Assembly (NCBI GenBank): GCA_000004985.1
Contig: GG738896.1
DNA from: Naegleria gruberi
Taxonomy: Eukaryota
DNA length: 64,000 bases
Strand: one strand, 5' to 3'
Positions 1 through 64,000 of this stretch are shown here, piece after piece (the stretch's first letter is position 1; each line of letters opens with the position of its first letter). The notes under the pieces are model-generated. The model did no database searches, was not told the DNA's origin, and was given only the letters and a program-made list of their open reading frames with translations. Position numbers and translations under genes: made by a program.

Positions 1-669
1 AAATGCTCGAACAAGATATGGTAAAGATGGTTCTCTCTGTAATGCAACCAAAGGAAGCTGCTGAGGAAGAATGGAATCAAAGATTGAATGAGGATAAATC
101 AACGCAATGGACAGCTTTATTAGATACCTATCCAAAGTAAGTATTGGAATATCTCTCTCTATTAATTAACACGAATCAGATTGAAAGAATACAGCATGTT
201 CAATTTAAAGTATGTTCATGTGAAGGAATGCCTTGAGAACGATTTTGAATTAAGGAACAAATTTGGATATGTATACACTATTGAAGATGAAGATGACAAT
301 ATTATTTTGTGGATTGAATGTGAAAATGGAGACAAGTATGTGGATAAAGTCAGTCTTAGATCACATTTAAAGAAAAAGCGTTTGAGATCTGACAAACCAC
401 ATTACAAAACAAACTGTTCTACATTTACCCAGCTACTTCTTAAGAGTTTACCATATCAAGCTGAAAAGATAATAGCAAATGGTTACAATGAGGTGGCATT
501 CATAAATGTTGAGGAGGCCACTAAAAGATATGGTGCATTCATTCTTCAAGACAAATACAAGTTGGATTTCAGTAAATTGGGATTAAAGGAATACCAGGTA
601 AAAAAGAATAGAAGTAAGAAAGCAAGTAAGGAAAAGGAAGAAAAGAAATCAGTTAGCAAAAAACCATAA
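1..669 (+). CDS. Hypothetical protein, 5'-partial at the window edge, with a Lys/Glu-rich C-terminal tail. Proposed 43-nt intron at 137..179.
   Basis: The reading frame opens at the window start and runs to 136. A GTAAGT donor sits at 137-142 and a CAG acceptor at 177-179. The splice joins in frame (phase 2) to the track ORF 181..669 (...LDTYPK|K|LKEYSMFNLKYV...), stop TAA at 667-669. No recognised domain. The C-terminus is KKNRSKKASKEKEEKK. Confidence 0.35.
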
Positions 670-1777: not shown

Positions 1778-1841
1778 TTTTTTTAATTATTAAATTAATA
1801 TTAAAATCTTTACAAAATTATTAAATATTATTAAATAGTTT

Positions 1842-3109: not shown

Positions 3110-3291
3110 GAGTTTATTGTTGGATGTTTTTTTCTTGTTGATTTACTTGAATTTTGTTGGCGCCAAATGTTGTGAAGTTCAAAGTGCAAACTCAGATTAG
3201 CACTTGAAGTATCACTTGGGATTTGCATTTAATAACTAAGCTCATTGAAATCTCACAAATTACTCACTTTATTTGAAGTTAATAGGAACAA

Positions 3292-4239
3292 TTAAATGGC
3301 AGTTCCAGTTTCAGTCAATTGACCAAGACATTGTCTAGCTCCAACCTTTGAAATGGTTGGCCAAACTTGATTATCAATCTTATCAATCTTTGTCTTGTTC
3401 AAAACAATGACCTTCATATATTGTAAATAATAGTAAAGTTCCTTATCTGATTTTTCACATTCTCTCAATTTCTTATCCAAATCAGAGATGGAACGACCCA
3501 AACAATTCAACTTGACATTTCCTCCCCAAACATCTTTCAACCATCCACCAAATTTGTTCATGGTAATTCTGTCAGAATAAATTGGGACGAATTGATATTC
3601 GAATTTGGTGAATTCCTTTCTAGCAATAAGTTCTGAAACGAATTTTGCAACATCTTCATAATTGGAAATTTCAAATTCTTCATCACCAGTTCCATAGAAA
3701 TTCAAAGCATGTTTCTTAGTATCGACAATGAAGGAAACTTGGAGCAACTTTTCAATAAAGATACCACACAAGATGGAAATCCATTTCAATTGAGTATTCT
3801 GATTCAAGAGTGCGTGAACCTTCTTTCTTACATCAATTCTAGGCAACATTTCTGTATTATCAAGTTTAGTAAAATCAATACTAAAGTCAGATGGAATGTA
3901 ATACTTGACGTTGGCCTTGATACATGATTCAATGACACGAGTTTCAGCTTTCAATTCTTCTTCATGATCGAAAAAGTTCATACAATTCAACACCAAAGTG
4001 AAATCTTTGAGAATATTAACGAAATCTTCACATGAATCTTTCAAGACATCGAAACAGAAAATCTTTCCATTAAGCTTCTTCTCCCATACGTTCAATTTGT
4101 CACGACTTTCGGATGGAACTAACAAGGAGCATTTAACATCTTTTTGATGATTTTCGCACAAGTTTTTGACTATTTGGCAACCAAGATGACCGGAAGCACC
4201 AAGGATTAGGACATTCAAATCAGAGATTTTAGATTCCAT
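3292..4239 (-). CDS. NmrA-like / isoflavone-reductase-like NAD(P)-binding Rossmann protein, 315 aa.
   Basis: N-terminal 'VLILGASGHLGCQIV' matches the GxxGxxG dinucleotide-binding motif of the NmrA/PCBER family. ATG at 4239..4237. Single exon. Confidence 0.55.
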   Translation of the reverse strand: MESKISDLNVLILGASGHLGCQIVKNLCENHQKDVKCSLLVPSESRDKLNVWEKKLNGKIFCFDVLKDSCEDFVNILKDFTLVLNCMNFFDHEEELKAETRVIESCIKANVKYYIPSDFSIDFTKLDNTEMLPRIDVRKKVHALLNQNTQLKWISILCGIFIEKLLQVSFIVDTKKHALNFYGTGDEEFEISNYEDVAKFVSELIARKEFTKFEYQFVPIYSDRITMNKFGGWLKDVWGGNVKLNCLGRSISDLDKKLRECEKSDKELYYYLQYMKVIVLNKTKIDKIDNQVWPTISKVGARQCLGQLTETGTAI

Positions 4240-5591: not shown

Positions 5592-5811
5592 TTTTTGTAA
5601 TGCTTTCCTTTACTAGCATCACACATGGTAGAACAAACAAACTCGGCTTGTTACCTGCCTGGATGATCCTTCCACCCGTTAGTTACCTTAATATTTTTCA
5701 AATTGTCTTCTTGCAAGGCTTGTAAATTTTTTTGGCGAACAAGACTCTGCGGTAATTAAGCTTGAACTATTAAATGATTGGAAAGATATAAAAAATAATA
5801 AAACAATCATC

Positions 5812-6606
5812 ATGATGATGAAGATGGAATGTCCACTCATGTTTCTTCAAGAGGAGGTGGGAGAATTCAGTACCACTGTATATTTCAGAGTAGCAGCATC
5901 TCAATCCGAACACCAACTCCCAACTAACTATTTTGAACCTATAAGGAGTGAGGTAATTATTGATAGTTACTTTGAAATTCCACCCTTTTGCTTACTAGAG
6001 GTGGATGGTGATTGGCCAATGGCAAGACTAATCTTTTCAGATTTGAATACATGTAAAGAGGACTTTATTTTGAAGAGTAAGAAACGAGAAGGCAACCAAA
6101 TCACTGACGATTCACTAGTTCACTTTAATGTTAAACATTATGGCAGTAGCACAGATCTTGTGAATGCAATTTTGGAGAATAAGAAAGATAAGTTAGCATT
6201 TGTGAAATCTAGTGTTTGCCAACGATTCATTGCCACCACTCACATTCTGAGATATGTACTGCAACACAAAACAGACCCACAAGTTGAATTGCAACTGTGC
6301 AGTCTAAAGATTGGACTCGAGTATTATAATTTCGGTAAGATTAAGGTGGGAAGAAAGTGTGATGCAAATGAAATGGAAACCTTTTTCAGTCAATTGAATC
6401 CAATGGAATTGCAATACATTATTCCAGCAAATAGTCCTGTTATTAGAAAAATGCAAAGTGAAAAATCCCTCCTTCTCCAGACCATACCATCCTCTCAAAT
6501 CTACCACTTTATAGACACATCATTATCTGAAAGTCCTCTTCACTTTAAACATGAAAAATTTAATGACATTCTATTAGAAACTCTAGAAGAAGTTTCTGAA
6601 TACTGA
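5812..6606 (+). CDS. Hypothetical protein, 264 aa.
   Basis: Clean single ORF from ATG 5812, no low-complexity region. No family recognised. Confidence 0.35.
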   Translation: MMMKMECPLMFLQEEVGEFSTTVYFRVAASQSEHQLPTNYFEPIRSEVIIDSYFEIPPFCLLEVDGDWPMARLIFSDLNTCKEDFILKSKKREGNQITDDSLVHFNVKHYGSSTDLVNAILENKKDKLAFVKSSVCQRFIATTHILRYVLQHKTDPQVELQLCSLKIGLEYYNFGKIKVGRKCDANEMETFFSQLNPMELQYIIPANSPVIRKMQSEKSLLLQTIPSSQIYHFIDTSLSESPLHFKHEKFNDILLETLEEVSEY

Positions 6607-6687
6607 GAATAAAGTAATACAACATGTGAAAGTAATATATTTAAAGTTTATATTCACTTCAAATATAGTATTATTTCCATAAAAAAT

Positions 6688-7593
6688 TTAAGCATTGAAA
6701 CCAGCAGCTCTAACAACTTGTGCAGAGGTGTATGATGAAACACTGAATCCAGAATCATTAACTTCGAAAACACCATTAGAGTAACTCTTAGCCAAAACCC
6801 AATGTCCACCATTTCTGACGTTCAAAATGACAACCTTTCCTTGACAGACCCAATTGATAATAGCTTGCTTATCAGTAGTTTGTCCAAGATAATTGAATCC
6901 AAGTCTAGAAACAGCTCCCCAAACAAACAAATTTCCATAATAACCTCCATTCTTCAACAAGTATTGGTTCAATTGACCTGGGTTCATTGAACTCTTTCCT
7001 CTACCATTCAAAGCAGAACAAACTGAATTCATCAAACAACCAACTTGACAAATAGTGGAAGAACTTCCAAGTCTATCACCACCCCATCTAGAATCACATT
7101 GTTTAAAGAGTGGATAATTGTAATTTTGTCTACAACCAGATGTAGAACCACCACCACCACCTCCATTTTGAACAACAGTTAAGAAATTAGAGGCAGCATA
7201 ACCAGTTCCAAAACTACCAGAAACCTTATACCAAGTATAACCACATCCACTTTGGACTTCACCAGTGAATTTGACAACTTGACCATTTCCAAGAGTAGTA
7301 ATAATTGATTTACCAGTGCATGGTCCACTTCTGACATTCAAAGCAGTGGTTGCTTTCAAGGAAGCTCCACTAGCAATTGATGAATCAGATTCGGCATCTG
7401 ACATTTCGAAATCTTCTTCAGATTCGGATTGAACACTTTGAATGGCATTAATTGGAAGATCAATAGCGAAATTGGTGGCCAATGAAGGTTCTCCAACCAA
7501 TTTGACACTTCTATTGTTTGGATAAGCACGTTGACAAGAGACAACGACAGCAAATGTCAAGAGCAATAAAATTCCCACGAAGATTTTGTTCAT
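6688..7593 (-). CDS. Secreted protein: signal peptide, then a bacterial-type SH3 (SH3b) domain, a Gly-rich linker, and a papain-like cysteine peptidase of the C39-like family (Peptidase_C39_2/CHAP-like).
   Basis: The likely true start is ATG 7593..7591 ('MNKIFVGILLLLTFAVVVSCQ', a signal peptide). The track ORF begins 22 codons earlier at a non-ATG. SH3b-like region: 'ALNVRSGPCTGKSIITTLGNGQVVKFTGEVQSGCGYTWYKV'. Linker: 'GGGGGGSTSG'. Peptidase region: 'DSRWGGDRLGSSSTICQVGCLMNSVCSALNG' (catalytic Cys in a Q..CG.. context) and later 'NGGHWVLAKSY' (catalytic His). Confidence 0.5.
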   Translation of the reverse strand: MNKIFVGILLLLTFAVVVSCQRAYPNNRSVKLVGEPSLATNFAIDLPINAIQSVQSESEEDFEMSDAESDSSIASGASLKATTALNVRSGPCTGKSIITTLGNGQVVKFTGEVQSGCGYTWYKVSGSFGTGYAASNFLTVVQNGGGGGGSTSGCRQNYNYPLFKQCDSRWGGDRLGSSSTICQVGCLMNSVCSALNGRGKSSMNPGQLNQYLLKNGGYYGNLFVWGAVSRLGFNYLGQTTDKQAIINWVCQGKVVILNVRNGGHWVLAKSYSNGVFEVNDSGFSVSSYTSAQVVRAAGFNA

Positions 7594-8008
7594 TTTTTTT
7601 GTGATGATTTTTTGGCAGTTGAAAGGTTGAATATTAAAATCAAATTGCTGCTCAGCCAATACGGATAATAAACATGAACGAGATGGTAATGAAAGAATAA
7701 AAATAGAATGTTAAATAATTGGGGCATTATGATATTGAGGGGGCATTGAAACGAATCGAATAGAAAATGTGCATTTATTCCAAACAAAATACTAAGTGAT
7801 GCTTGAAAGGTAATCTTGCGCTGGAGTAACCGACAACATGATCTTGAAATGCATGCTTGTTGTTTGAAGAAGGTGGTTATTGTAATAGTTTGTGATTGTT
7901 CAAATGGATGTTAGATAGAGAAATTTCAATCTTTTTGCATCTACAGTTCTATCAAATAACTTCTTTCCAATATTCGAATAAGATTTTTACAAAATATACA
8001 ATAGGATT

Positions 8009-9085
8009 TTATGCCTCCTTGTTTGGAATTGGAGATTCAGATGGATATGTTATCTGTTCGTTTGGAGCCTCAATTGAAAACATATCTTTACCATTATAAA
8101 TAAATTTCTTACTCTTGTACATGTATTCATATTCATTCCTAAATGAATCTGCAATCTGACACCACAATGAGGCATTTTCCTCAATATCAAGTTCAGTTTT
8201 TCCATCCAACCATATCAGTGCAATTCGAATCTTGTCTCTTAATGATTCCATTGTGGCAATCTCTGAAAAGATAAACGTCCTGTTTGTAACTGTATCCTTC
8301 TGGCAATGTTCCTTTTCAAACTCTTGTTGATAAATCTTGGGTATCGACATTTTAGCCCACAAATGATACAGGTAATTCCTAGCTGATTTGTAATCATTCA
8401 ATTCTCCATATTCATCTGTGAGTGAATCAATATCAAAAGAAAACCAATCGATTGGCATTTCTACTTGTTGTCTACTTCTCATTGAAGAAGACAATGGTTT
8501 GAAATTAAAAACTGGAAAATCTCCCAAATCCAATTCATCTAACATGTCTGCACTTTTCCAATACTCTTCTTCCTTTTCAAAGAAATTAGATGAAAATCCT
8601 AGAGGGCTCTTCTTATCATTACAAGGTGATCGAACATATTCATTTGGATTACTAAATGGAAATCTATTATCCCATTCCTTCTTTACAGATCTGACACTAT
8701 TCGATCTCTCAATAGGTTCACAAGCCCACCTCGAAAGTAACGACGAATTCATCGTCATTGTTGATGAAGAAGGTACTGAAGATTTAGATCTTTGAGAGGA
8801 GTAGGATCTCGTCGATGGAGAGGTAGAATACATAGTCCTAGTGGTACTTGGGTTGGATCGGGATTGAGTCTTATTCATACTATTAGATTCATACCCGATG
8901 GGATTATCAAATTTACTCCTAAATTTAGCTAGTTTTAGTCTCTTCTTTTGTTGGTAGGTGAGTTGTTGTTGTTGTGCTTGTTGTTTATCCATGCTGTTCA
9001 TTCCCTTAAAGGTTTGTAGGGGTGGCGGTTGTAAATGTACAAGATGTTGATGATCCGACCTCTTTGATGACATTGTAGTGGTCAT
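8009..9085 (-). CDS. Hypothetical Ser/Gln-rich protein, 358 aa.
   Basis: ORF with ATG 9085..9083. The N-terminal half is low complexity (poly-Q, S/T-rich); the C-terminal half is globular. No family recognised. Confidence 0.3.
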   Translation of the reverse strand: MTTTMSSKRSDHQHLVHLQPPPLQTFKGMNSMDKQQAQQQQLTYQQKKRLKLAKFRSKFDNPIGYESNSMNKTQSRSNPSTTRTMYSTSPSTRSYSSQRSKSSVPSSSTMTMNSSLLSRWACEPIERSNSVRSVKKEWDNRFPFSNPNEYVRSPCNDKKSPLGFSSNFFEKEEEYWKSADMLDELDLGDFPVFNFKPLSSSMRSRQQVEMPIDWFSFDIDSLTDEYGELNDYKSARNYLYHLWAKMSIPKIYQQEFEKEHCQKDTVTNRTFIFSEIATMESLRDKIRIALIWLDGKTELDIEENASLWCQIADSFRNEYEYMYKSKKFIYNGKDMFSIEAPNEQITYPSESPIPNKEA

Positions 9086-9316
9086 GCTGATTCGTTATAT
9101 TATTATTATATGATAGTGGGTGTAACGGTCGTTTTAAAAATGATGATTGAGGGTGAGAGGTAAGGTGGTGTCCTTTTTTTTTCGTTGAAAAAATCGTTAC
9201 ACGATGTTGCTGTAGTTCAAGCATGAACTATGTGACATTACCGTAACGAATGGTTGCAAATCAAGAATGGTTTGAATTCGCGAATAAGAGTAAAAAGGAA
9301 TAATGGTAAGGAAAAT

Positions 9317-12300
9317 TTATTCAACCTTAGATGATTGCTCTGATTGTTCTAGAGAGAGGGATCTGAAAATAGGGAAGAAGGAAGTAACATCATCATTGTC
9401 TTCACATCGATCGTAAATGTATTGTTCTGTACCTGTGAATTCAGTCACTGATTTTTGGTAGAGGTAAATTAAAAAGTAGACATAATTCCACAAGTAGTGT
9501 TCCTCCTTGACATGCTTTTCAAAGGTGATACCTTCATTGGCTCTTGTATCGAATTTAGTTCGTTCCAATCCACAAATAAAACACTTATCTCGAATGTCCT
9601 TCTTTCTGTCTTCTCTTTCATTTCTCAGTACTTCAAACGAATCGAGAATGACACCAAACACAACGTTAACAAGTAACACAATAACTATCACTAAAAAGGA
9701 AAGGTCAAGTATGGCTCTCTGAACTGAAACATTTGGATCATAAATATCCTCCCAAAAAGATTCTCCTCTAAAGCCATAATCCAACATGGTCACATAGCAA
9801 GCTAACATATCTTCACATGTCTTGTCGCCTGTCTTGGAGATTTTAAAATCTGAAGAAAAGAAGGTAAAATAGAGTGTACCAAAGAAGAATAAGGCAATAC
9901 ACAACAACATTCCTGTAAAGAACAAACGTTTCACATTCGAAGTAACTGATTTCAACACATCGGTCAATGACTTGAAGATGTAAACCATTTCAAAAAGCTG
10001 TATCGAGTAAATAATTGGAGTTATCAACAATCCAATCACAGAGACTACAATGTAAATAATAAAATACCAAATTTGAGAATCTTGTATGGTATATAAAAAG
10101 CATTTGGTCATAAAATCAAAATCTCTTGGAATTGAGTCCCACGTTTCGTTTTTCTTTAGCTTGAATCGTTTCTTCACTTCCAACGTCAAGAAGAGTGATA
10201 CATAAATGACAAATAGAATTACCAGGAAAATCAATTGTGTCACACCAACAATAATAAGAATTATATCACTTGCAAGATTTCTAGGTGCTGTAGTTTTGGT
10301 GAGAGCATATACATCAAAGTCACTGCCAGGTAAAGGTATTTGAGAATACTCTGTTGTTGCATAAATTCTCTTAAATGTTCCCAAAACAATAATATTAATA
10401 ATAACAGAGAGGAAGAATGAAGACAATCTCAAGTAATCCCACCAATTGGCAATATATTCCCATGATGCTGTTTTAACCTCTTGTTTCTTCTTTTTCTTTC
10501 GTTTTGCTAGCAAATTGCTGGTTGTGGCAACGAGAGACATTGAAGGCAAAAGATTTTCCATTTCCTCCTCTGGTTCCTCTTCTTCTTTCTTGTTGAGATT
10601 CGGAATAGTAAAAGTCTTTTTCATATTTTCATAGTGACACATTTCCACATAGAATGTACTGAATGTGTCATTGTACAATTTCCTAACTTTTTCTTGTGGA
10701 GTCATTACGTGCAACGAATTGGCATAGTTGCTTCTTGCCTTATCGATAATATTGTTACATATTGTTGGTTTGGGAAAGTAGATCTTTTCAAGTACGTTAT
10801 TTCTCAATACTTCAATGCTACCAGTTCTTTGTTTGAAATAAGAGAGCTCCTTTGAATTGGTTTGGAAAAAGTTGGCTACTCTTGATTCCTCTTCCAAAGC
10901 TTGAGTACCCTTTCTGAATTCAGTCTCACTGTCCCTGATCATGGAGAGAAGGAAAAAGATGTGAGTTCCCAAGTCATCGTATTGCAATCTAATCTTCTCG
11001 AGATTGTCCTCCATATAGTCGTCGACACGGATTGGCTTCTTTGAACTCTTCTCAGATTGATACAAAACATGGAATCCAAAGTCTTTACGCATTCTCTTTT
11101 TGAGTCTTTCAAGATCATCACAATCATCATGGTTATTACCCGATAGAGTTTCGAACAATCTCAAAATGTACAATAATTTTTGTTCAAAATCATCCAAATT
11201 CAAAGAATTTTTCATGAATTCTAATGTGACTGTGTTTCTTCCTTCCAATAGAGATATTAAGAAGAGTGTAATTTCCTTCTTGAGGTCAAGCTCTTGTTCC
11301 TTCAACAACTTGCTGTCATCGTAGGTCTTACTCATGATTTCATTGATAAGTCTTGGATAAATCTTATTGGATGTACCAATTAAATTTTGGTTAAAGACAG
11401 CAGGTCCTTGGACAAATTCGGTCAGGGTCTTAAAACCTTGGATGGCTACTTGAACATTGTCTGCATCCAATTTCTTTTCCAAAGCAATCAAATATTCAAT
11501 AATTTCCGTAATTAAATCAAAGCTGAAAATATTTCTTGGTTGATGTTTCAATAGGGCTTGATTTTTGGTATTATGGCCTTCACACAATAATCTCAAAAAT
11601 TCCATAGTGTTAAAAATGAATCCCTTTTCTACAAATTCCACACCAACTTCATCTTCTTCGTTATCATGGTCAGCATTGAGGTTAGTTGTAGACTTTTTCT
11701 GGTTAGCTAGTGCCAACTCCTTGTCTCTCTTTTTCTTCAAGTGATTCTTCATTTGTTTGATTTCAATCTTTGAGAGACGGATTCTGTCTCTAAGAGACAT
11801 GAAAAATTCGGTAGAGTCTTGATCTGTAAGAAGCGAATAAATATGATTCTGAACGTCAAGATCTCCGTCATTCAATATTAAAATACCAAGCTCCAAAGCT
11901 GATTTTGCAATTTGATGGTGGTTAGAGTTGAGGAATTCAATAACTACCTCAGGAATTTTCTTTTCCACCAAATCTAATTTAAGAGTTGATTCTTCGGTTT
12001 GTTGGTTTTGCCTTTCAACAATACTCTTCAAAATATCCATACCAAAGAGTCCTACCTTCATGTTCTGAAGAAGTAAACCAGAACTATTCAAGTCACGTAA
12101 TACATTGACGAGTGTTTTGATAAATCCATCATATTTGATAAATATGGCAGCAAGCTCTGAAAAGTTGGAAAAGTTTCTATTAATCTTGGAAATTATTCTG
12201 TCTTTCAAGTACTTTTTGTATGTGTTGTGGATAAGTTCGTCCTTCTCGGTACTGGTTGATGTTTGTATTCTTGATCTATGTACCTTGGCTTTAGTGGCCT

Positions 12301-15300
12301 TATTTGAAATGAAATTAGAAATTGCTTTCTGACTAGTTGAAGACATACTTCTCTTCAACATGGCCTGAATACATTTGAGAACTTTATCCCTATTCTCTGG
12401 ATTTGGTGTATGTTTGTGAAGTTCTATGAGTTTTATCAACAAATCTTCTGCAATATCCAACTGTTCTTTTGTCAGATTTGGAGGTGGGAAGTGGAGATGG
12501 AAATAATCTCTCACACAAGGAATCATAATATCAAACAAATAGGTATTATCAACTTGATAGGTTTCTTGATCTTCCTCACTAGGTCCAACGACTTTTGGAA
12601 GTGCTACAGAGTATGTTTTCGAAGATCGTTTGGAAGCAGTTGTTGACAATCCACGGTTTTTGGTTGGAGTAGCAAACAGTGAAGTGTTTGAGAGGGTTTT
12701 GCTTGGTGTTGTTGGGGTTCGAGTATGGGCATGCATAATACTTTGTCTTTCACCTTTTTGTGTGGATAAAATCAAGTCGTTACCATCTGATTCATTTGAA
12801 TAGGTCATTTCTAACACTTCCAATTCAGTAACCATTTTAGAGAATAACTTGAAAAGCATTGGATGATGAACATTTACCATCTTGCTCTCAGATTCTGTAG
12901 AGTCATCTGATGCCTTTTCAACATTCAAGTAAATTTCATCAATAACTTTAACCAATGGATTTCTCAATACAGGTAGAGTACAACAAATAACTTGTTCTAA
13001 AAGTTCTTCATAGCTGTAGAGGGTTTGTAATTTAAGCTCACTCTCTCTGTTTTTACCATCAGCAAGAGAGGCCAACAAGTATAAAAGGGCAATGTGATAA
13101 TTTAAAATACCATCTGGTTCAGTTTTGTGTTCACCTTTGATAATTCTTTGATTACGTTCTCTGAGACCTTCTTCGTCTTTGAAAAGAATCATAATGTCCT
13201 TCTTTCTTTCGAGCAGATATTTGGTAATGAGTGATTGGTTTCGTTTGATTGGATTGCCATTATTTGTTCCCAGAATGACATGCAAGAACAACAACATGAA
13301 AGAGCAAGGTTGCTCAGCAATTTGGTCAATGTAGTGTTCGATTAATTTTTCTTCAATAGTACTGCACAGACCTCTATTGTCTCTTACCATTTCACAAAGG
13401 AGAATGACAATCTTCTTATCTAGACTTCTATTCTCACCAATAGTGTGAATAAAGAATTCCAATTGTTTGAACATAATCTTTTGATTGTCTTGATTTCCTC
13501 TAACAAAAGCAATTAAAATATCAATACCAATCTCTTCAATTTCCTTGCTCACAATATAATCCTTCTTGAGGAATGTGAGAATAATATCATAAATGAAGAG
13601 ATTTCTCACTATTCTTTGTGATCTTTGACCATTCTTCTTGATATCTGATAGGATTTCATTGAGAGCTTTTAGGACTTTTTTCTCTTCCTGTTCTGTGAGT
13701 CTTCTAGTACCAAAATAATTGCTTTGACCATAACCAAAAACAGATCGCAACTCAACTACCTGTGAAAGTAGCAAATCGTAGGATTTAGCCATTTCTCTCG
13801 AAACGATAAGTTCAATCTTTGGAAGAACTTCACATAATTCTTGAGCAGATCTGTACTTTCTAATTAGTAAATCAAGGCAGGTTGTAGCGAGTTCCTTATT
13901 TTCATATTTGGTCAGCGAAAGAATTTTAACATCGAATCGATCCATCTTGTTGAAAATAACATCCTTTTCGAGAATATCTTTGATTACAGCATATTCATTA
14001 GAGTCAATTTCGGCAAGTCTTTTCTGTTGTAAAGCTCTATTGTCCATTGGTATCACCTCTTGTTCTCTAAGTACAGTCTCAATCTCTTCCTCTCTGTATT
14101 TCTTCCAAAAGAATTGCAAGAATTTTGTCACTCTCTTGTCTAAAATAATGTCTAGAATCATGTGGAAGATGGAAGCAATTTCAATTTTGATCTTCATGAG
14201 GGTTAAATTTTCTTCTACGTTTTTGTGTCTTTCTTCCTCACTAAGAATTCTACCATCCTTCTTGTCATTATCTCCTCTGAGCATATCAAAGAGAGAATTC
14301 AACAAATCACCCTCCTCAAAGTCTATCAATGTAAGAACTCCAAATTCCAACATTCTCTTACACATAATTACAACGTATAATGTAAAGTTGTTGTGATCCT
14401 TCTTTTCTAAAGACACATCCAAGCTAACATTCTCTCTAAGGAATTTCCCTAAAAAATCTTTGATTTCTGCCAAATCCTTTGAGTTGCCGTCTTCTTTTGA
14501 TCTTTGATTGAGAGTACTGGTTTTTCTGGTGTAGTCAATCAGTGGTTTCTTTTCTCTCTTCTCCGTATCAATGAAAGTTTGGATCAAAAGCTTTACAAAT
14601 GATGTTCTGACGGCTGGTGTTAAATTCTTATCAGAGACACATTTGTGGACAACTTCGTAGGTGAACAGAGAAACAACAGATCTTCTCGCATCCTCAATTT
14701 CTTCATTTCTTCCTGTACAGAGGGCAGCAAAAAGACGAATTTCCTCTTGGAAGAAGATGAGTTGTTCATAATTTGGTCTTGTGTATCCATTGTATGTATC
14801 ATCTGTTGCAGACTGAGAGAAACTAATCAAGTCTATTTCATCATGATTGACTTCTACCACAACCTTGTCTTCATTGTTAAGCTTTGGAATGATAAAAACT
14901 CTTCTCAATTGGTCCTTATATTTTGAAAAAAGCAAATTACCAATATATACCTGATTTTTCACCACAGTTTTACCTTCACAAATGATCAAGCTAGTCAAAA
15001 AGGATAAATAGACAGCCTTCTTCAAGCTCTTGGAACTTTGTCGCATACCAATCTTTGATGTGTTTTCAAAGAGAAGCTTGACGAAAAAGTCAATTTGTGA
15101 CTCGGTAATCTTGTTCAAAAGTGGATAATTGTTGGATAAGATTTCCAACAGAGCTTCACTTGCAGCAATGCTATGTTCAATCAGAGTTTGGATAAAGTTG
15201 ATATATTGTGCCATGTAGAGACCGTTAGATTCGTTTGAAAGGACAAACTGTCTAATGAGTCTGAAGGAGTACTGAACCACATCAAAATAAAGTGCCTTCT

Positions 15301-17664
15301 CTGGCTTTTCATAAATTAAAGATAAATCCTCAATTGATAAATATTTCTTCAATAATAGAGTGATATTTTCCATTACAAGACCAATGACTCCCATATCTCT
15401 GATGATATTTTGTCTAAGTTTAACAGGAATACCACCTCTTGTTAGAGGGTCTGTCTCTTCACTAATAGTACAAAATCTAATGCAATTTGCCAATGCACCA
15501 ATGTAGAGTTTGATATCTGACTTGTCAATGAGCGAGTCGTCCAACTTGGATTTGAAATACCTAATAATTGGCATGTAACCAGCTACGGTGAGTGCATCAT
15601 TCAAATCCTCATGTGAAACAGCTGAAAAATTGAAAACATCCTGTTCAAACATTTTCAAAGATGAAGTTACTCTCTGATAGGTTGAGTCAGCAAGTGGTCT
15701 AGATATGTGTACCCAAGAATTAGTGGCTTCATGCCTCAATCTAAAGTAATCGGTGGTTTGAACTTTCTCACCCTTCTTTTGTCCTCCAGTCGAGTCGGTG
15801 AAATGGAAGACACTGGTTGGTATTGGTTGTGTAATCAAGTCATCAAAGTTTTCAACATGAAGAGTCCACAATGAATCATTTTGTGTTACGCTGCCTGATC
15901 TATTTCCTCGTGGAGTGGCTACAATTGAACTTTTTCTAGGTGCATTAACTCCAAGTTGGCTCAAGTTATCACCAGATGTTGGTGTGTTTTCTCGTTCATA
16001 TCTTTCTTCAATGGCATCATCCGCTTCAATGGTTATTCCTTTAATAGGACGAATCACCATGTATTTTCCACTTGCCAAGTGTCTTAGACGGAATTTCGAA
16101 GTCCACTTTACAGTACCAGAACAGCTAGAGTCTAAAAATTCCAATTGCCACAAAGTTTGAGGACTCACATAGTCAGAAGATTTAGATTCCATACCAGCCA
16201 AGCTTGTATCCTCAGAGTCGTTGATTTGTAGATTGCTTGATTTCTTGAAAAATTTAATTCTATCCGTTTTTTCATTCACTCCAATATATCCTTCCAATTC
16301 CTTGTGGTATATTCTCATAATGGTGGATCCTGCTTTGAGTTTTCTATTTGTTTCATCATTTTGTGGTGTGTATTTTTGGTAGAGTTTCATTCTCCACCTA
16401 GTGAATGCAGTACTATTCGCCATGTTAACTTCTCTTCTACTATCGTAGGAATATTTTCCTCTATTTCGTGATAATTTTACAGCTTGTTGAGCTAATTCTG
16501 TGTATGAAGAATTTTCATTCACTCTTTGATAGGTACCATCATTGTCTTCTCCAGTTGTGTATCTATAATAGGATAAGTGAATAAATTGGTTGGACTTTTT
16601 GTTGTAAAGTCTAATTTGATCAGTGAGTTTAACTTGATCTCCATCCTTTTGAAAACTGGAATATGGCATTATTTGAAAGTATGAATAGGTAGATCCTTCT
16701 TTATCGAGGGCCAATCTCATACAATCCTTTTGCATTTCTGCAGATTCTCTTGCTACTGTCAGATAGCACTGTGTTTGTACATGATACAATTGTACTGTTT
16801 GTCCATAGACAACTGGTTTTGAAAGGTTTCTTTGTGATTCCATCCTATTTTGTTCAAGTTCTCTTTCAGCTCGTTGTTCCAATTGTTGATATTCTGTTGA
16901 GAAGGAGGCTGTCGAAGGCATTACATTATTCTTGTTATCCTTTGTTTTTTTGTTGGCCTCTTTCAACTCTTGTTCTTCTTTGAAGGTTTTGAACTTTTTC
17001 AGTGCTGAATAACTCTTTGGATGACAAATCTTGAAAACACAATTAGAAAAGTTTGGTGTAAAGAAGGAAGAATCCTTTTCTGAAATGACAGATTCCACCA
17101 GACCACATCTAGCTTGTGGTTTGTTTCTAAAATATTGATGAAATAATAAAAGTAGTATTTAACAGAGAATAAAGAAGGTGAATAATTAGTTGAATATTTA
17201 AACAATATTTACCCTTTAACATTCTCGGAACAAGTCAAATTAATACCATCCACACTCAAGAACCCAATCATTGAATTACCAGTACTTTTTGATGACAAAT
17301 CCGTATAGAAGGAAATTTCCTCTCCAATTCTCAAATAATCTCCCTTCTTTTTCATCATCATATTATTCATCCACAATTGTTGCTCATCCTCCTTCACATC
17401 ACTCATCACATCTTCATCCTCATCATACAAATGATGATCAAAGCCTTGTTGTTGCTGTGCAGAAGAGGATGATGATGACGAATATTCGGAATGTTGTTCA
17501 TGATGATGATTTGATGTGGCGCCATTATTTTTAACGGCAGAAGTGGCGCTTACCGATACGATGAGTTGTTCTTGTTGTTGATGAAATAAGAGTGCATAGT
17601 CAAAGAGGTGTTGTGATGATGGTTCGGAAGAGTTGCTATTGTTATGATTATTGGATAGTGTCAT
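9317..17664 (-). CDS. Inositol-1,4,5-trisphosphate-receptor-like intracellular Ca2+ release channel (IP3R/RyR superfamily), about 2750 aa. Two exons, join(17664..17213, 17126..9317), with an 86-nt intron.
   Basis: Exon 1 is track ORF 17209..17664, starting at ATG 17664. It has an Asn/Ser/Gln/His-rich leader, then the start of the suppressor/beta-trefoil domain 'LRIGEEISFYTD...GFLSVDG' (compare IP3R1 'LHIGDIVSLYAEGS..GFIST'). A GG|GTAAAT donor at 17212 and a TTTTAG acceptor at 17127 join in phase 2 to the 2593-aa ORF ('...ARCGLVESV...CVFKICHPKSYSALKKF', compare 'DRCVV...CLFKLCPMNRYSAQKQF'). The C-terminus has six-TM channel helices, a pore region, and the diagnostic '[44 protein letters not shown]' (IP3R '[36 protein letters not shown]'). 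Confidence 0.8.
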
Positions 17665-55657: not shown

Positions 55658-55915
55658 GAGAATTAACACAATTTTCTATTAAGTATCCGCGCTGATTCTC
55701 AAGAAATAATTCCATAGCTTGGGAACTAACTATTACAATAAACATGCACCAATTTTGTAACAAGAGATGTCGCTACTATTCTCTGTGCTGGTAGTAACTA
55801 TGTAATTTATTTATTATTAGAAGGAGAATAGGATAGAAAATAATTTGAAAAAAACAACATCAACACCTTATTACATTTTCTTCAAACTCTTTTATACAAC
55901 TGCTTCTTCTTCATC

Positions 55916-58142
55916 ATGTCCAACCCATCAATTGGCAGCAATCACACTGCCCAGAGACGTTTACTTGTACATTTAAATCATTTACTCCCTTCAAGTCAAT
56001 CAGCCGATCTGATTGAATCTAACGTTGTAAGAGGATTGACATCATACAATGATGAAGGTGATCGTTACAGTAGTATTTCCTATAATTATAAACATACGTT
56101 TGATGTTAGGAAAATGACTTCATTCCTCAGTCCTAGCTTTGATAAAAAGGAAATGTATAAATTCCTTGATACACCACTCATGCTTCATAAGAGTATCAAC
56201 ATTACTAAGGAAGAGGCAAGAGAAGTTGCCTTGAAACAAGTTATATTCCTATGTCAATCTGGATATTTCAATGTAACAGATATGAAAAAGAATCCTGAAC
56301 TGTTTCTTCAAAGAATGGAAGCTGGAATTATTGATGCCTCAATGAATGTCAAGTTGGGTGTTCAATTACTTCTCTTTGCTGGTAGTATTATGAACTTGGG
56401 TACCAAGAAACATCATGATTTATACTTGAAAAGAGCAGAAAGATGTGAATTACCTGGTGCATTTGCAATGACAGAAATTGAACATGGAAGTGAGTATTTA
56501 AATTGATATTATTTTGAATATTCTAATGTATTCTAAAGGCAATGTTAGAGAATTGAAAACCACTGCCATATTTGATGAACAAACAAATGAATTCGTCCTC
56601 AATACACCAAACAAGGGAGCTATTAAATGGTGGCTCGGAAATGCTGCTTGTCATGCTACAATGGCAACTGTTTTTGCTCGACTCATTTTGAAAGGAAAGG
56701 ATTATGGTGTTCATGCTTTTCTTTGTCCAATTAGAGATCCAAAAAGTATGGAATTATTGCCAGGTGTCATTGCAGGAGATTGTGGTGATAAGATTGGATT
56801 GCATGGAGTTGATAATGGATTCCTAGAGTTTGAAAATGTCAGAATTCCATACGATAATTTATTGGATAGATTTGGTGGAATTGATTTAGAAAGCAAGTCA
56901 TACAAATCTGAATTTGATAGTGCAGGAAGAAGATTTGCAGCAGTTCTTGGAGAATTAATTACTGGAAGAGTTACCATTGTAAGTGGATCATTGAATTGCA
57001 GAAGAGTTGGATGCATGATTGCCACACGTTATGCAAGTCAGAGAACTCAATTTTCTGCAGGTAAAGAATTCCCAGAACAACCAATTCTCGATTACAAATC
57101 TCACAAAACAAGATTAATGCCAATAATTGCCTCTTCTTACGTTTTTGAGTTTATTAAGAGAAATGTTGTGAAAAAGTATTGTAGATTACATTTGGAAAAG
57201 GTTTCAGATGATGAATTGCAAGAAATTCATGCCCTTTCTGCTGGTGTAAAAGCTGCAATGTCTTGGGATACTCAAACTCATTTGCAAACATTGAGAGAAA
57301 TGTGTGGTGGACATGGTTATTCTGCATATAATCGTTTGGGAACTCTTCGTAATGATCACGATGTTTTGAAAACATTTGAGGGTGACAATACTGTATTAAT
57401 TCAACAATTAGGTGGATATTTATTGAAAGAATTCAGCAAGCAGTTTAGTGGTGAGCTGATATCAGATTCAGTTCAGTATATTAGAAAGCAAGTTGGTGGT
57501 ATGGCTCAAAGAAATCCACTCATTACCAGATTGTCAAGTAAGAAACATTTGAGAAACTCTGATTATCATTTGCAAGCTTTCGAGTATAGAACTGCAAAAT
57601 TATTACAAGAGTGTGCATTGGAAATTAATGTAAACAAGAAGAAACAAGGTATTTTCCGTGCATTCGGTGAATCTCTCCCTAAATTAATTAGATTAGGTAG
57701 AGCCTATGTTGAGCAAGTTGCCTTACACGATTATTTACATGGCATTGAACAAGTTCAAGATCCAGAACTTAAACCTATTTTGAAAATGATGGGAGACTTG
57801 TATGCTTTGGATATTATTTCTAAGAATGTTGGAGACTTTATTGACCTCATCAAGAAGAACAAACTCTCAGCCATTCACGATATGGTTGAATGGTTGTGTG
57901 AAGAATTGAGAGTTCATGCTGTTTCTCTTGTTGACTCATTTGGATTTCCTGATTTTCTATTGGATGCACCAATTGCTAAGAGAGATCATGGTAATTATGT
58001 CCATCACATTCTCAATTATTCTCTTACAAGAAATAAGGGTAATTCAGATTTGATTGGTAAAATGCAAACTGATGTAGTTATGAAGAGAAAGAACGTTGCA
58101 TCTGATGAAGATGTTAATCAAGTGATGGAAATAAATTTGTAA
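55916..58142 (+). CDS. ACOX: Acyl-CoA oxidase (peroxisomal ACOX family). Two exons, join(55916..56489, 56539..58142), with a 49-nt intron.
   Basis: Exon 1 is ORF 55916..56506 and ends '...PGAFAMTEIEHG' at the donor A|GTGAGT at 56490. The TTCTAAAG acceptor at 56538 joins in phase 1 to ORF 56514..58142, giving '[37 protein letters not shown]' (ACOX '[29 protein letters not shown]...IKWW'). The downstream FAD/acyl-CoA dehydrogenase signature is 'GGHGYSAYNRLGTLRNDHDVLKTFEGDNTVLIQQ'. Confidence 0.75.
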
Positions 58143-58233
58143 ATCTTGGCACTGTATTTAAATGGGAGTTTCAAACTTTCGAATGTTTTGTAAAACTCCC
58201 TGATTCTTCTGAACTCTGACAACCTTCAGATCC

Positions 58234-58400
58234 AGTGTGGGCCAACCAACTCTAAAAAATATGATAAAATACAGACCAACAGTATTATTCAATGTCTGTA
58301 TACCTTCAAAACATTAATATACTACCATCGTTTTTTCAATGTCCAAAATAAACTCGTTTTTTTAATGTTTACAAACTTTAGCATTGGTTGGCCCACAGTA
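58234..58400. repeat. About 16-bp GC-rich inverted repeat pair (CAGTGTGGGCCAACCAA ... TTGGTTGGCCCACAGTA) flanking about 135 bp. A MITE-like element or hairpin in the 3' flank of the acyl-CoA oxidase gene.
   Basis: The arms at about 58234-58251 and 58384-58400 are perfect reverse complements over 'TGTGGGCCAACCAA'. The interior is AT-rich and non-coding. Confidence 0.25.
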
Positions 58401-59362
58401 TCTAGAGCACATGTCGCTTCATCTAATAGCAAAATCTTTGTGTTGTGAAACAAACTTTTTTTACTTTTATCTGGTCAACTGCAATTTGCTTTCCTCGCTG
58501 ATAGGAGTTTCACTAACGAATGAAATAAATTAAACACAAAATCAAAATCATAAGAACAAATAGAAATAAGAATAAATTTGAGTAGGGCGAAGGTAGTTTT
58601 GATCTACCGCCTCAAGGCAATGGTCAAGTGTAAATGCATGACAACCTTGCGTTTCTCCCGATTGAAACTATTCACCCTAATATATTAGAGGGAAAATTAA
58701 ACGAACACTGTCAAGAAAAAATAACCACTATTTTTTATTTTGGTTCAACAATAAATATTTCAAATATATTTCTCCAAAAGACAATCGTTGATAAACCAAT
58801 GGATATTACTCTGCGCTCTAAAAAATACGCAACCATTTGGCAAACGGTGAAAAATCGCATAGGTTCAACTTAATTCTCTACAAAATGACGTTGTAATATT
58901 TGCATTTAATTCAGTAATTGTAAAGTATATCGTATTTGAATTGGTGTTAAACTTGTTAATTTTCTATTGCTTAATAGTAGTGAGTTGAATAGTTGTGAAA
59001 CTACCTTTAATTGCGGTGCGCACTTATTCCGACATCATTAAGAGCATTAAGGAATAAGTAAATGGTATTTATTAAAAGGTGGCCGTGCCAATACTCACTC
59101 TTTGTTAGAGGTTGTTAGATTTCAACCATTCAATGGTGTTTTCATCTTCAAGATCAATGTCTTCTTTTTCAAATTCAATAACAACAATATTTTCAAATAG
59201 TTCGGGATGATTTTTAACTTGTTCTCTTGTTGGAGTGTTGATGAACAATGCATCAAACAATTTATGATATGAACACATAATATGATCCAATGAATAAATT
59301 GTTAAATTATTACTCTTCTTTGATATTTGTAACTTTTCTTTGAGTGTGTGGGTTTGGTTCTA

Positions 59363-60981
59363 CTTGGGTTTGGGTTGGTGGGGTTTGGGTGAGTTTTATA
59401 CACTTTCATACAATAGAGTGATATTGAAATGTACCCTTTGATATTTCTGGATGGGTAGCATGATTTAGTGATGATTCCGACAATAAAAATCATATATTGT
59501 TCATATAATTATCAAGATATTGTATAATTTATTAAATATAAAGTGGGTAATATTGAATATTCTTTGTAGGAGCGGAAGCACTTATTCTTGTCAGTTGGAG
59601 TCAGTATTGTATTAAGGTTCATTTTAGGAATCTTAAAAAAATACAATAACAACTCACCTGCATCAACATCATCAAGTATATCATCTATATTGAATATAAA
59701 GCAACAGCAAGAATGTATGGAGTTGATTCAACATGATTATTGGATTGGAGAGATGGCAAAAATATTACTATTATTGTATTTGTCAAGTTGGAAGTACCCT
59801 CAGGATCATCAGCGAGGTTTCCTCTTCATCTCTTCTTGTTAGAGAGGTTTTTCATCCACAAGATGGTCATCTTCTTCATTGAAGAGGTTGCTTTATTATT
59901 AAGCACTGAGAGAAGCGTTTTTAAATTTTATTTTGATGAAATAAATCAAAATTTATTACGCACAACACATCAAGAACAACAACAGCAACATGCTGATACA
60001 CCATCATCATCACTGGGTGAATTGGCCATCATTGTTGTATAATTTCTTGGAATTTATTGGATTAACAGTAAATTTTGGAATTACTCTCCTATTGAAGATG
60101 GAACATCAGCAACATCACCAAGATGATCTTCAATTGGATAGTATTGTTTTCAGAAGTGGTTTCACGCTTTTTGTGGGCTCTTTCAACATACCATCATCAG
60201 AATGGTCATCATCTTGTTGAGGGAAGATGTTCAACCTTGTTTTGGAAAGTAGAATATCTTACCACCACTCTATTCTCCTATTTTGATTGGATTGGTGGAG
60301 GTGCCACCACCTCTTCATACATTGGGTTTGGGTTGGTGGGGTTTGGGTGAGTTTTATACACTTTCATACAATAGAGTGATATTGAAATGTACCCTTTGAT
60401 ATTTCTGGATGGGTAGCATGATTTAGTGATGATTCCGACAATAAAAATCATATATTGTTCATATAATTATCAAGATATTGTATAATTTATTAAATATAAA
60501 GTGGGTAATATTGAATATTCTTTGTAGGAGCGGAAGCACTTATTCTTGTCAGTTGGAGTCAGTATTGTATTAAGGTTCATTTAAGGAATCTTAAAAAAAT
60601 ACAATAACAACTCACCTGCATCAACATCATCAAGTATATCATCTATATTGAATATAAAGCAACAGCAAGAATGTATGGAGTTGATTCAACATGATTATTG
60701 GATTGGAGAGATGGCAAAAATATTACTATTATTGTATTTGTCAAGTTGGAAGTACCCTCAGGATCATCAGCGAGGTTTCCTCTTCATCTCTTCTTGTTAG
60801 AGAGGTTTTTCATCCACAAGATGGTCATCTTCTTCAATTGAAGAGGTTGCTTTATTATTAAGCACTGAGAGAAGCGTTTTTAAATTTTATTTTGATGAAA
60901 TAAATCAAAATTTATTACGCACAACACATCAAGAACAACAACAGCAACATGCTGATACACCATCATCATCACTGGGTGAAT
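59363..60981. repeat. Subtelomeric direct tandem repeat with a 959-bp unit. There are at least 1.7 copies, the second cut off by the assembly gap. Each unit begins with a degenerate telomere-like tract (GGGTTTGGGTTGGTGGGGTTTGGGTGAG).
   Basis: 59365-60323 and 60324-60981 are near-identical, offset exactly 959 bp. An example is '...gagttttatacactttcatacaatagagtgatattgaaatgtaccctttgatatttctggatgggtagcatgatttagtgatgattccgac...' in both copies. Only single-base differences were seen, for example tttaggaatc versus ttaaggaatc. Confidence 0.7.
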
Positions 60982-62796
60982 NNNNNNNNNNNNNNNNNNN
61001 NNNNNNNNNNNNNNNNNNNNNNNNNNNNNNNNNNNNNNNNNNNNNNNNNNNNNNNNNNNNNNNNNNNNNNNNNNNNNNNNNNNNNNNNNNNNNNNNNNNN
61101 NNNNNNNNNNNNNNNNNNNNNNNNNNNNNNNNNNNNNNNNNNNNNNNNNNNNNNNNNNNNNNNNNNNNNNNNNNNNNNNNNNNNNNNNNNNNNNNNNNNN
61201 NNNNNNNNNNNNNNNNNNNNNNNNNNNNNNNNNNNNNNNNNNNNNNNNNNNNNNNNNNNNNNNNNNNNNNNNNNNNNNNNNNNNNNNNNNNNNNNNNNNN
61301 NNNNNNNNNNNNNNNNNNNNNNNNNNNNNNNNNNNNNNNNNNNNNNNNNNNNNNNNNNNNNNNNNNNNNNNNNNNNNNNNNNNNNNNNNNNNNNNNNNNN
61401 NNNNNNNNNNNNNNNNNNNNNNNNNNNNNNNNNNNNNNNNNNNNNNNNNNNNNNNNNNNNNNNNNNNNNNNNNNNNNNNNNNNNNNNNNNNNNNNNNNNN
61501 NNNNNNNNNNNNNNNNNNNNNNNNNNNNNNNNNNNNNNNNNNNNNNNNNNNNNNNNNNNNNNNNNNNNNNNNNNNNNNNNNNNNNNNNNNNNNNNNNNNN
61601 NNNNNNNNNNNNNNNNNNNNNNNNNNNNNNNNNNNNNNNNNNNNNNNNNNNNNNNNNNNNNNNNNNNNNNNNNNNNNNNNNNNNNNNNNNNNNNNNNNNN
61701 NNNNNNNNNNNNNNNNNNNNNNNNNNNNNNNNNNNNNNNNNNNNNNNNNNNNNNNNNNNNNNNNNNNNNNNNNNNNNNNNNNNNNNNNNNNNNNNNNNNN
61801 NNNNNNNNNNNNNNNNNNNNNNNNNNNNNNNNNNNNNNNNNNNNNNNNNNNNNNNNNNNNNNNNNNNNNNNNNNNNNNNNNNNNNNNNNNNNNNNNNNNN
61901 NNNNNNNNNNNNNNNNNNNNNNNNNNNNNNNNNNNNNNNNNNNNNNNNNNNNNNNNNNNNNNNNNNNNNNNNNNNNNNNNNNNNNNNNNNNNNNNNNNNN
62001 NNNNNNNNNNNNNNNNNNNNNNNNNNNNNNNNNNNNNNNNNNNNNNNNNNNNNNNNNNNNNNNNNNNNNNNNNNNNNNNNNNNNNNNNNNNNNNNNNNNN
62101 NNNNNNNNNNNNNNNNNNNNNNNNNNNNNNNNNNNNNNNNNNNNNNNNNNNNNNNNNNNNNNNNNNNNNNNNNNNNNNNNNNNNNNNNNNNNNNNNNNNN
62201 NNNNNNNNNNNNNNNNNNNNNNNNNNNNNNNNNNNNNNNNNNNNNNNNNNNNNNNNNNNNNNNNNNNNNNNNNNNNNNNNNNNNNNNNNNNNNNNNNNNN
62301 NNNNNNNNNNNNNNNNNNNNNNNNNNNNNNNNNNNNNNNNNNNNNNNNNNNNNNNNNNNNNNNNNNNNNNNNNNNNNNNNNNNNNNNNNNNNNNNNNNNN
62401 NNNNNNNNNNNNNNNNNNNNNNNNNNNNNNNNNNNNNNNNNNNNNNNNNNNNNNNNNNNNNNNNNNNNNNNNNNNNNNNNNNNNNNNNNNNNNNNNNNNN
62501 NNNNNNNNNNNNNNNNNNNNNNNNNNNNNNNNNNNNNNNNNNNNNNNNNNNNNNNNNNNNNNNNNNNNNNNNNNNNNNNNNNNNNNNNNNNNNNNNNNNN
62601 NNNNNNNNNNNNNNNNNNNNNNNNNNNNNNNNNNNNNNNNNNNNNNNNNNNNNNNNNNNNNNNNNNNNNNNNNNNNNNNNNNNNNNNNNNNNNNNNNNNN
62701 NNNNNNNNNNNNNNNNNNNNNNNNNNNNNNNNNNNNNNNNNNNNNNNNNNNNNNNNNNNNNNNNNNNNNNNNNNNNNNNNNNNNNNNNNNNNNNNN
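60982..62796. other. Assembly gap of 1815 N.
   Basis: Run of n characters. The flanks suggest it hides further copies of the 959-bp subtelomeric repeat. Confidence 0.95.
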
Positions 62797-63024
62797 TAAA
62801 AGAGGTCAAGGAGAGATTTCAAAACATAAAATAAATTATATTTTCGAGATGTACTATTGATTTCCAATCGATTGATATGTATTTTGTAGATTGAGGATGT
62901 GGTTCTTTATTTGAAGAGTTCCTCCTTAACTTACCAAGTAAACCCTGATATTTCACCCTTTACCTTACTGAATGATGGAATATTCACCAAAATATCTGTA
63001 AACTGAACCATATATATTATTAGA

Positions 63025-63500
63025 GATGTAGAACATGATGGTGATGTTTCATTGAGTGGTCATTTTCCAGAAATTCATCCATGTCCATAGTTGACTAGAT
63101 GGTATGAAAGGGATGAAATCATGAATATGTATGTTAAAATAAACTTTATATTCTATCTCTACTCATCAAATGGAGCATTTTCATGTATATATTGTTGATT
63201 GAAGTGATGTATTTGATAGACTTGATCTGACCTGTCAATCCTTAAAGTCAACCTTATAAAGTCAACCATTATCTTCCTATAGTTCCATTTCTTGTTCTTA
63301 TGATATGAAATTGAATTCTACATCATTATAGATCATGTACATCATGTTGGTAAAGTTTCAATAGTGGTCCTTTTTCAAGATTTCATCCTTTTCATCATAG
63401 TTGACCATATGATGGTTGAGGGAAGAAATCTTTAAATATGAAAGTGAAAATAAATTTGATATTCGATGTTTACTAATCAAATGGAACATTTTCATATCAG
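63025..63500. repeat. Telomere-associated degenerate tandem repeat, about 310-bp period, 2 copies, immediately proximal to the telomere.
   Basis: 63025-63200 and 63335-63500 align with about 70% identity. An example is 'tcattttccagaaattcatccatgtccatagttgactagatggtatgaaagggatgaaatcatgaatatgtatgttaaaataaactttatattctatctctactcatcaaatggagcattttcatg' versus 'tcctttttcaagatttcatccttttcatcatagttgaccatatgatggttgagggaagaaatctttaaatatgaaagtgaaaataaatttgatattcgatgtttactaatcaaatggaacattttcat'. Confidence 0.4.
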
Positions 63501-63548
63501 GATTTAATATGTTTTGATGAGAAACTCAAAAGTTATAGTTGACCTATT

Positions 63549-64000
63549 GGGTTTGGGTTGGGTTTGGGTTTGGGTTGGGTTTGGGTTTGGGTTTGGGTTT
63601 GGGTTTGGGTTTGGGTTTGGGTTTGGGTTTGGGTTTGGGTTTGGGTTTGGGTTTGGGTTTGGGTTTGGGTTTGGGTTTGGGTTTGGGTTTGGGTTTGGGT
63701 TTGGGTTTGGGTTTGGGTTTGGGTTTGGGTTTGGGTTTGGGTTTGGGTTTGGGTTTGGGTTTGGGTTTGGGTTTGGGTTTGGGTTTGGGTTTGGGTTTGG
63801 GTTTGGGTTTGGGTTTGGGTTTGGGTTTGGGTTTGGGTTTGGGTTTGGGTTTGGGTTTGGGTTTGGGTTTGGGTTTGGGTTTGGGTTTGGGTTTGGGTTT
63901 GGGTTTGGGTTTGGGTTTGGGTTTGGGTTTGGGTTTGGGTTTGGGTTTGGGTTTGGGTTTGGGTTTGGGTTTGGGTTTGGGTTTGGGTTTGGGTTTGGGT
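63549..64000 (+). repeat. Telomere: about 75 tandem GGGTTT (TTTGGG) hexamers with occasional GGGTT variants. The G-rich strand is oriented toward the window end.
   Basis: Perfect hexamer periodicity to the last base of the window. The TG-rich strand runs 5'->3' toward the terminus, as expected for a right chromosome end. Confidence 0.85.

Follow-up and report, generated by a model that had tools for sequence, protein, structure and literature searches.

The 64,000-nt stretch of Naegleria gruberi DNA analysed here (the window) ends in a long array of T/G-rich hexamers, which raises the question of whether this array is the telomere of a nuclear chromosome and of how the DNA next to it is organised. 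An earlier note on the same DNA had described the array as about 450 bp of GGGTTT hexamers with a few GGGTT variants and with the G-rich strand running 5'->3' outward, and had taken it to define the telomere repeat of the organism. The features that bear on the question are listed in Table 1.

Table 1. Coordinates of features in the window
Feature	Position	Strand	Remarks
IP3-receptor/ryanodine-receptor-like channel	9317-17098	-	uninterrupted single ORF, 2,593 aa
Gene-to-repeat stretch	58143-59363		short ORFs only; 3 scanned, no significant Pfam match, best E 0.21
Further telomere-like sequence, GTGTGTGGGTTTGG	59346-59359		just upstream of copy 1
958/959-bp repeat, copy 1	59364-60321	+	no Pfam-recognisable ORF
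Interstitial degenerate telomere tract, TTGGGTTTGGGTTGGTGGGGTTTGGGTG	59364-59391	+	28 nt, G/T-only; head of copy 1
958/959-bp repeat, copy 2	60322-60981	+	truncated by gap
Identical 28-nt tract, TTGGGTTTGGGTTGGTGGGGTTTGGGTG	60322-60349	+	head of copy 2
Scaffold gap	60982-62796		1,815 N; sets the 1,204-bp telomeric contig apart
Degenerate tandem array	62797-63546		period ~308-311 bp, ~2.4 units; by self-alignment and autocorrelation
Unit A of the ~310-bp array	62797-63085		start lost in gap
Unit B of the ~310-bp array	63086-63395		
Unit C of the ~310-bp array	63396-63546		ends at the telomere after ~150 bp
Telomeric tract	63547-64000	+	454 bp; 73 x TTTGGG + 3 x TTGGG

The terminal TTTGGG tract and its host

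TRF analysis of positions 63547-64000 revealed a repeat with a period of 6, present in 76 copies (99% matches, score 894), and tokenising the tract into T runs and G runs resolved its 454 bp into 73 TTTGGG units and three TTGGG units. The TTGGG variants were located at 63547, 63558 and 63575 only, all in the first 34 bases of the tract at its proximal edge; from 63580 to 64000, the last base of the window, the sequence was a perfect (TTTGGG)70. When the whole window was searched for (TTTGGG)3 with up to 2 mismatches, 71 matches were obtained, compared with 0.01 expected from dinucleotide-preserving shuffles. All 71 were on the + strand and inside the terminal tract, and the complementary sequence CCCAAACCCAAA had no copy in the whole window; therefore, the G-rich strand points 5'->3' into the window end. 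The terminal tract contained no TTGGGG unit, and the window contained no TTGGGG dimer. The length, the outward orientation of the G-rich strand and the few variants (TTGGG is GGGTT in the phase used by the earlier note) were thus all borne out.

These properties are those of a telomere: a long T/G-rich array of short units that reaches the last base of the window, with the G-rich strand outward, homogeneous distal repeats and variants at the proximal edge only. An interstitial tract would have non-telomeric flanks to either side; in the window, this array has no distal flank. The assembled 454 bp is a minimum for the telomere length, since its extent is set by read length.

The hexamer itself has been reported before. 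In a search of 143 genome assemblies for minisatellites of the TnAmGo type, Fulneckova et al. (2013, Genome Biol Evol 5:468; PMC3622300) judged the candidates on their position and orientation in the assembly and listed TTTGGG for N. gruberi as a telomere candidate obtained in silico. Organism, assembly, hexamer and reasoning in the survey's account (PMC3622300) are identical to those here, and the present tract is one instance of the published pattern. The claim that the array defines the telomere repeat of this organism was therefore right in its central inference, TTTGGG being supported, and is no discovery, as the candidate was published in 2013 (PMC3622300). TTTGGG as the telomere motif of N. 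gruberi is correct and already known as an in-silico candidate. As far as its account of this organism goes, the survey (PMC3622300) gives the motif only; the proximal variants, the ~310-bp array and the relic-headed 959-bp units are described here. What is added is the exact anatomy, a caveat about a scaffold gap, Y'-like relics at unit boundaries and a hint concerning Heterolobosea.

The literature searched contained no experimental verification (Bal31, TRAP or FISH) of a telomere from Naegleria or Acrasis and no description of a Naegleria TERT or telomerase RNA, and the paper on the N. fowleri nanopore genome mentioned telomeres nowhere. One well-resolved scaffold end now backs a motif that has so far rested on an in-silico survey only, and its anatomy gives a first picture of how a heterolobosean subtelomere is built. 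With the motif, Naegleria assemblies can be checked for completeness (those of N. gruberi and perhaps of the pathogen N. fowleri), telomere probes can be designed and the template of the telomerase RNA can be sought. The current understanding of telomeres is unchanged by these results.

Because the window stops at 64000 inside the array, the tract could in principle be a large internal (TTTGGG)n block, with the scaffold or chromosome going on past the window. Blocks of telomeric repeats are also present internally in many genomes (Fulneckova et al., PMC3622300), and in 87 of the 120 (TTTGGG)6 matches listed from the metagenome scan described below, the array was internal to the contig, mostly in GC-rich and probably unrelated DNA. 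An old internal block would be expected to be degenerate throughout, like the 28-nt tracts of Table 1, but the array has 70 perfect units and variants at the proximal side only. Its orientation and its flanking repeats suit a true end, and the terminal pattern in N. gruberi was judged convincing in the 2013 survey (PMC3622300). We consider an internal block very unlikely.

The host of the tract was examined from the composition and genes of the window. The G+C content was 34.6%; the N. gruberi assembly ACER00000000 has 35% G+C and 784 scaffolds (PMC6831594). Standard-code ORFs reached 2,593 aa, and the gene content included an IP3-receptor/ryanodine-receptor-like channel, a peroxisomal acyl-CoA oxidase, TPR proteins and methyltransferases. 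The product of ORF 56514-58142 was 100% identical to the peroxisomal acyl-CoA oxidase of N. gruberi NEG-M (XP_002672633.1 / EFC39889.1, on a 331,721-bp scaffold). The next best matches were from N. fowleri (75%), Willaertia magna (70%) and Acrasis kona (57%), all heteroloboseans. Scans of the window for Rfam families and for tRNAs gave nothing.

Two further observations were made on these genes. The channel ORF had the domains Ins145_P3_rec, MIR, RIH, RIH_assoc and Ion_trans. The acyl-CoA oxidase gene was split, covering about 55844-58142 on the + strand, with an upstream ORF in another frame that matched the N-terminal 215 aa of the N. fowleri orthologue. At 601 aa, the annotated N. gruberi protein falls about 150 aa short of its relatives (746-756 aa), and it lacks an Acyl-CoA_ox_N match; the deposited gene model may be truncated.

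Paramecium telomeres are a mixture of TTGGGG and TTTGGG. The occurrence of TTTGGG as one of these two hexamers would fit a foreign or artefactual array, with ciliate-type telomeric DNA brought in by a contaminant or with a cloning vector, but the terminal tract has no TTGGGG unit and a decayed form of the motif sits in a contig that is continuous with Naegleria genes. The long standard-code ORFs, one of which encodes an N. gruberi protein at 100% identity, also stand against a foreign source, as does the finding of the motif by others across the N. gruberi assembly (PMC3622300). The probability of such an origin is close to nil. A ciliate macronuclear telomere was rejected on the same grounds, namely the missing TTGGGG, the standard-code ORFs of up to 2,593 aa and the N. 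gruberi protein match.

Subtelomeric repeats and the scaffold gap

The last Pfam-recognisable gene of the window was the acyl-CoA oxidase, which ends at 58142. Nine short ORFs in 58143-63546 gave nothing significant in Pfam (best E 0.098, far under the gathering score). The gene is followed by the gene-to-repeat stretch and then by the 958/959-bp repeat, of which about 1.7 copies were visible. Copy 2 was identical to copy 1 at 658 of 659 positions, the difference being a single 1-nt indel. The longest ORF of the unit had 100 aa; it gave no Pfam match at E up to 1, and no helicase-like ORF was present. This identity (99.8%) is compatible with recent copying or homogenisation; partial collapse in the assembly is also possible.

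Each copy begins with the same 28-nt tract, TTGGGTTTGGGTTGGTGGGGTTTGGGTG, in the orientation of the terminal array, and a further telomere-like sequence, GTGTGTGGGTTTGG, lies just upstream of copy 1. Apart from the terminal array, the two 28-nt tracts were the sole G/T-only runs of at least 18 nt with at least two GGG in the window (63.5 kb). Both lie at unit boundaries with non-telomeric sequence on either side, as interstitial telomere repeats that have decayed. They would best be explained as relics of former chromosome ends that were trapped by recombination.

The repeat copies are parted from the end of the window by 1,815 N. The final 1,204 bp (750 bp of the ~310-bp array and 454 bp of telomere) form a separate small contig, which was presumably placed by read-pair links. 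Because of this gap, contiguity of the tiers is a deduction from scaffolding and not contiguous sequence. The earlier note had proposed a three-tier subtelomere composed of a 959-bp array, ~310-bp repeats and the telomere. All three elements are present, but the 1,815 N split the 959-bp repeat from the ~310-bp array. Likewise, the 959-bp repeat is real and its copies are near-identical, but only ~1.7 copies are visible, the second being cut by the gap.

The ~310-bp element is real but weak. A repeat search gave two pairs of pieces at a spacing of 310/311 bp, with 73% and 84% identity, and blastn of the sequence against itself matched 62827-63184 with 63135-63495 (66% identity over 372 bp, E 4e-35). 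Across 62797-63546, base-match autocorrelation was highest at lags 308-311 (0.396), over a background of 0.291 +/- 0.021 and above the maximum of 300 shuffles (0.378). In a three-way alignment, units A, B and C were in register, with identities in ungapped columns of 85% for B/C, 75% for A/B and 73% for A/C. The array was undetected by TRF because its copies are too diverged. The two diverged copies that the earlier note had placed beside the telomere from 63025 are thus real, but the element amounts to ~2.4 units that fill 62797-63546. Two 45-aa ORFs of the array had no Pfam match at E up to 1. A coding or RNA function of the subtelomeric repeats was unsupported, given the nine ORFs without a Pfam match and the nil results for Rfam and tRNA.

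A short sequence, ATAGTTGAC, was found at 63087, 63397 and 63535 on the + strand; these were the three copies in the window, all less than 460 bp from the telomere, and the last of them ends 3 nt ahead of the first telomeric unit. GTCAAC, the reverse-complement core of ATAGTTGAC, was duplicated at 63243-63272. Two of the three copies occupy homologous positions of the 310-bp unit, and three copies were reached in 4 of 100 shuffles, which is marginally above chance; ATAGTTGAC is not claimed as a site.

The gap also allows for a real telomere with a wrong join, in which the 1.2-kb contig would come from another N. gruberi end and would have been scaffolded here through shared subtelomeric repeats, so that the three-tier architecture would partly be a product of assembly. 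Near-identical copies with the second cut by a gap are the setting in which assemblers break and mis-link, and several contig ends of the metagenome assembly JAESGV01 (see below) have subtelomeric sequence in common, 77-92% identical over 1-1.8 kb. The gene-bearing contig itself carries the telomere-like tracts at 59364 and 60322, which are oriented like the terminal array, so it is telomere-proximal in its own right, and distal of 58142 it has no Pfam-recognisable gene, as expected near an end. Scaffolders, moreover, require consistent read-pair links. A wrong join is unlikely, and it is the least improbable of the three alternatives considered.

The purity, strand and position of the array, its proximal variants, the gene-free and repeat-rich DNA next to it and the relics further inside together support a telomerase-type telomere. 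It is highly probable that the window end is a nuclear chromosome end, represented by a scaffold, of N. gruberi NEG-M, with a (TTTGGG)n telomere that is presumably maintained by telomerase and followed by ordinary telomere-associated repeats. The anatomy of the sequence, the source organism and the earlier publication of the motif are established; synthesis by telomerase, physical terminality of the tract and a recombinational origin of the 959-bp array are what we infer.

According to general telomere biology, telomerase would copy a short CCCAAA-permuted RNA template onto the 3' end, and repeated shortening and resynthesis would keep the distal repeats uniform. The innermost and oldest units would escape renewal and drift, here presumably by three T deletions giving TTGGG. 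A 959-bp unit would once have been capped by a telomere and then extended off another copy by recombination or break-induced replication, which would leave the tract trapped between units.

Comparison with known telomere systems

Within Discoba, the best-studied telomeres are those of trypanosomatids, which consist of (TTAGGG)n. The N. gruberi end resembles them in having a hexameric G-rich repeat of the telomerase type with the G-rich strand outward, followed by subtelomeric repeat arrays. The units differ by one base (TTAGGG in trypanosomatids, TTTGGG here), which would call for a different telomerase RNA template and for duplex-binding Myb proteins of a different specificity.

The Paramecium mixture shares the TTTGGG unit with the present tract, and in both the G-rich strand has no A. 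The Naegleria tract, in contrast, is pure TTTGGG apart from rare TTGGG units, and TTGGGG is absent from it. The host also differs, being a heterolobosean with the standard code and conventional chromosomes and having no ciliate macronucleus.

In budding yeast, tandem Y' elements are separated by short telomeric tracts. The 959-bp units show the same arrangement, with near-identical tandem subtelomeric copies parted by short tracts in the telomere orientation, and this likeness suggests amplification by recombination at chromosome ends. Compared with Y' (5-7 kb), the 959-bp unit is far shorter and has neither a helicase nor another recognisable ORF; about 1.7 copies of it are visible here, and its recombinational origin is deduced from the arrangement.

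TTTGGG ends in metagenome contigs and, possibly, across Heterolobosea

Public metagenome contigs were scanned for (TTTGGG)6, and at least 120 loci were found. Among the 120 matches listed, an array that lay no more than 30 nt from a contig end had the telomere orientation 25 times and the wrong one 8 times. All 13 contigs of JAESGV01 among the matches listed ended in (TTTGGG)n in the telomere orientation, and the junction sequence differed in each of the 13. The common subtelomere mentioned above was found in L079, L103 and L121, and at some JAESGV01 ends short degenerate tandem repeats adjoined the telomere. The general architecture of these ends is like that of the N. gruberi window, and sequence similarity between the two is nil. 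Blocks in common were also observed in the subtelomeres of L008/L116, L055/L116 and L083/L116; all blocks of this kind were 75-95% identical and at most 1.8 kb long.

Blastn of the N. gruberi subtelomere (58143-60981 and 62797-63546) against the 120 listed loci revealed no match to the ~310-bp or 959-bp units. Four weak matches of 35-56 bp (77-89%) were obtained, mostly over the telomere-like tract. Tblastn of the window ORFs against the 120 listed metagenome loci gave nothing.

The JAESGV01 organism had introns, the standard code and two PPR-DYW deaminase genes. The best named relative of a P4-ATPase (flippase) fragment was the phospholipid-transporting ATPase Atp8 of Acrasis kona (45% identity, E 1e-79), and the next named matches were from plants, near E 1e-21. 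A search with the PPR-DYW protein gave distant plant matches only. Judged from these sequences, it is reasonable, if not conclusive, that JAESGV01 represents a second, Acrasis-like heterolobosean that would also be capped with TTTGGG.

In N. fowleri, W. magna and A. kona, the orthologue of the acyl-CoA oxidase is encoded deep within a contig, as is the flippase in A. kona. The N. gruberi chromosome end is therefore not syntenic in these relatives, and none of these loci led to the telomere of a named relative.

The JAESGV01 ends hint that TTTGGG is common across Heterolobosea. A broader proposal can be made only tentatively, and we regard it as nearly as likely to hold as to fail, with the balance slightly against it: TTTGGG would be the telomere of all Heterolobosea (Naegleria and the Acrasis-like JAESGV01 lineage), and the N. 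gruberi ends would in addition be remodelled by Y'-like copying that traps tracts between 959-bp units. TTAGGG is treated as the likely ancestral type by Fulneckova et al. (PMC3622300). If the proposal is true, a single A-to-T change from the euglenozoan TTAGGG would have been fixed over a very deep divergence.

Arrays in the telomere orientation were also seen at the ends of other contigs. L010, L017, L065, L077, L096 and L107 are AT-rich contigs from unrelated samples that end in (TTTGGG)n in this orientation. One of them, L010, ends in a TTGGGG unit and may come from a ciliate.

Two observations were made on a single JAESGV01 contig, L085 (JAESGV010000876.1). At positions 1-3762, a Ty3/gypsy-type pol ORF (RT, RNase H and integrase) abuts the (TTTGGG)n array. 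A few kb inside the telomere, at 5671-11509, two PPR-DYW deaminase genes of 987 and 935 aa lie next to each other.
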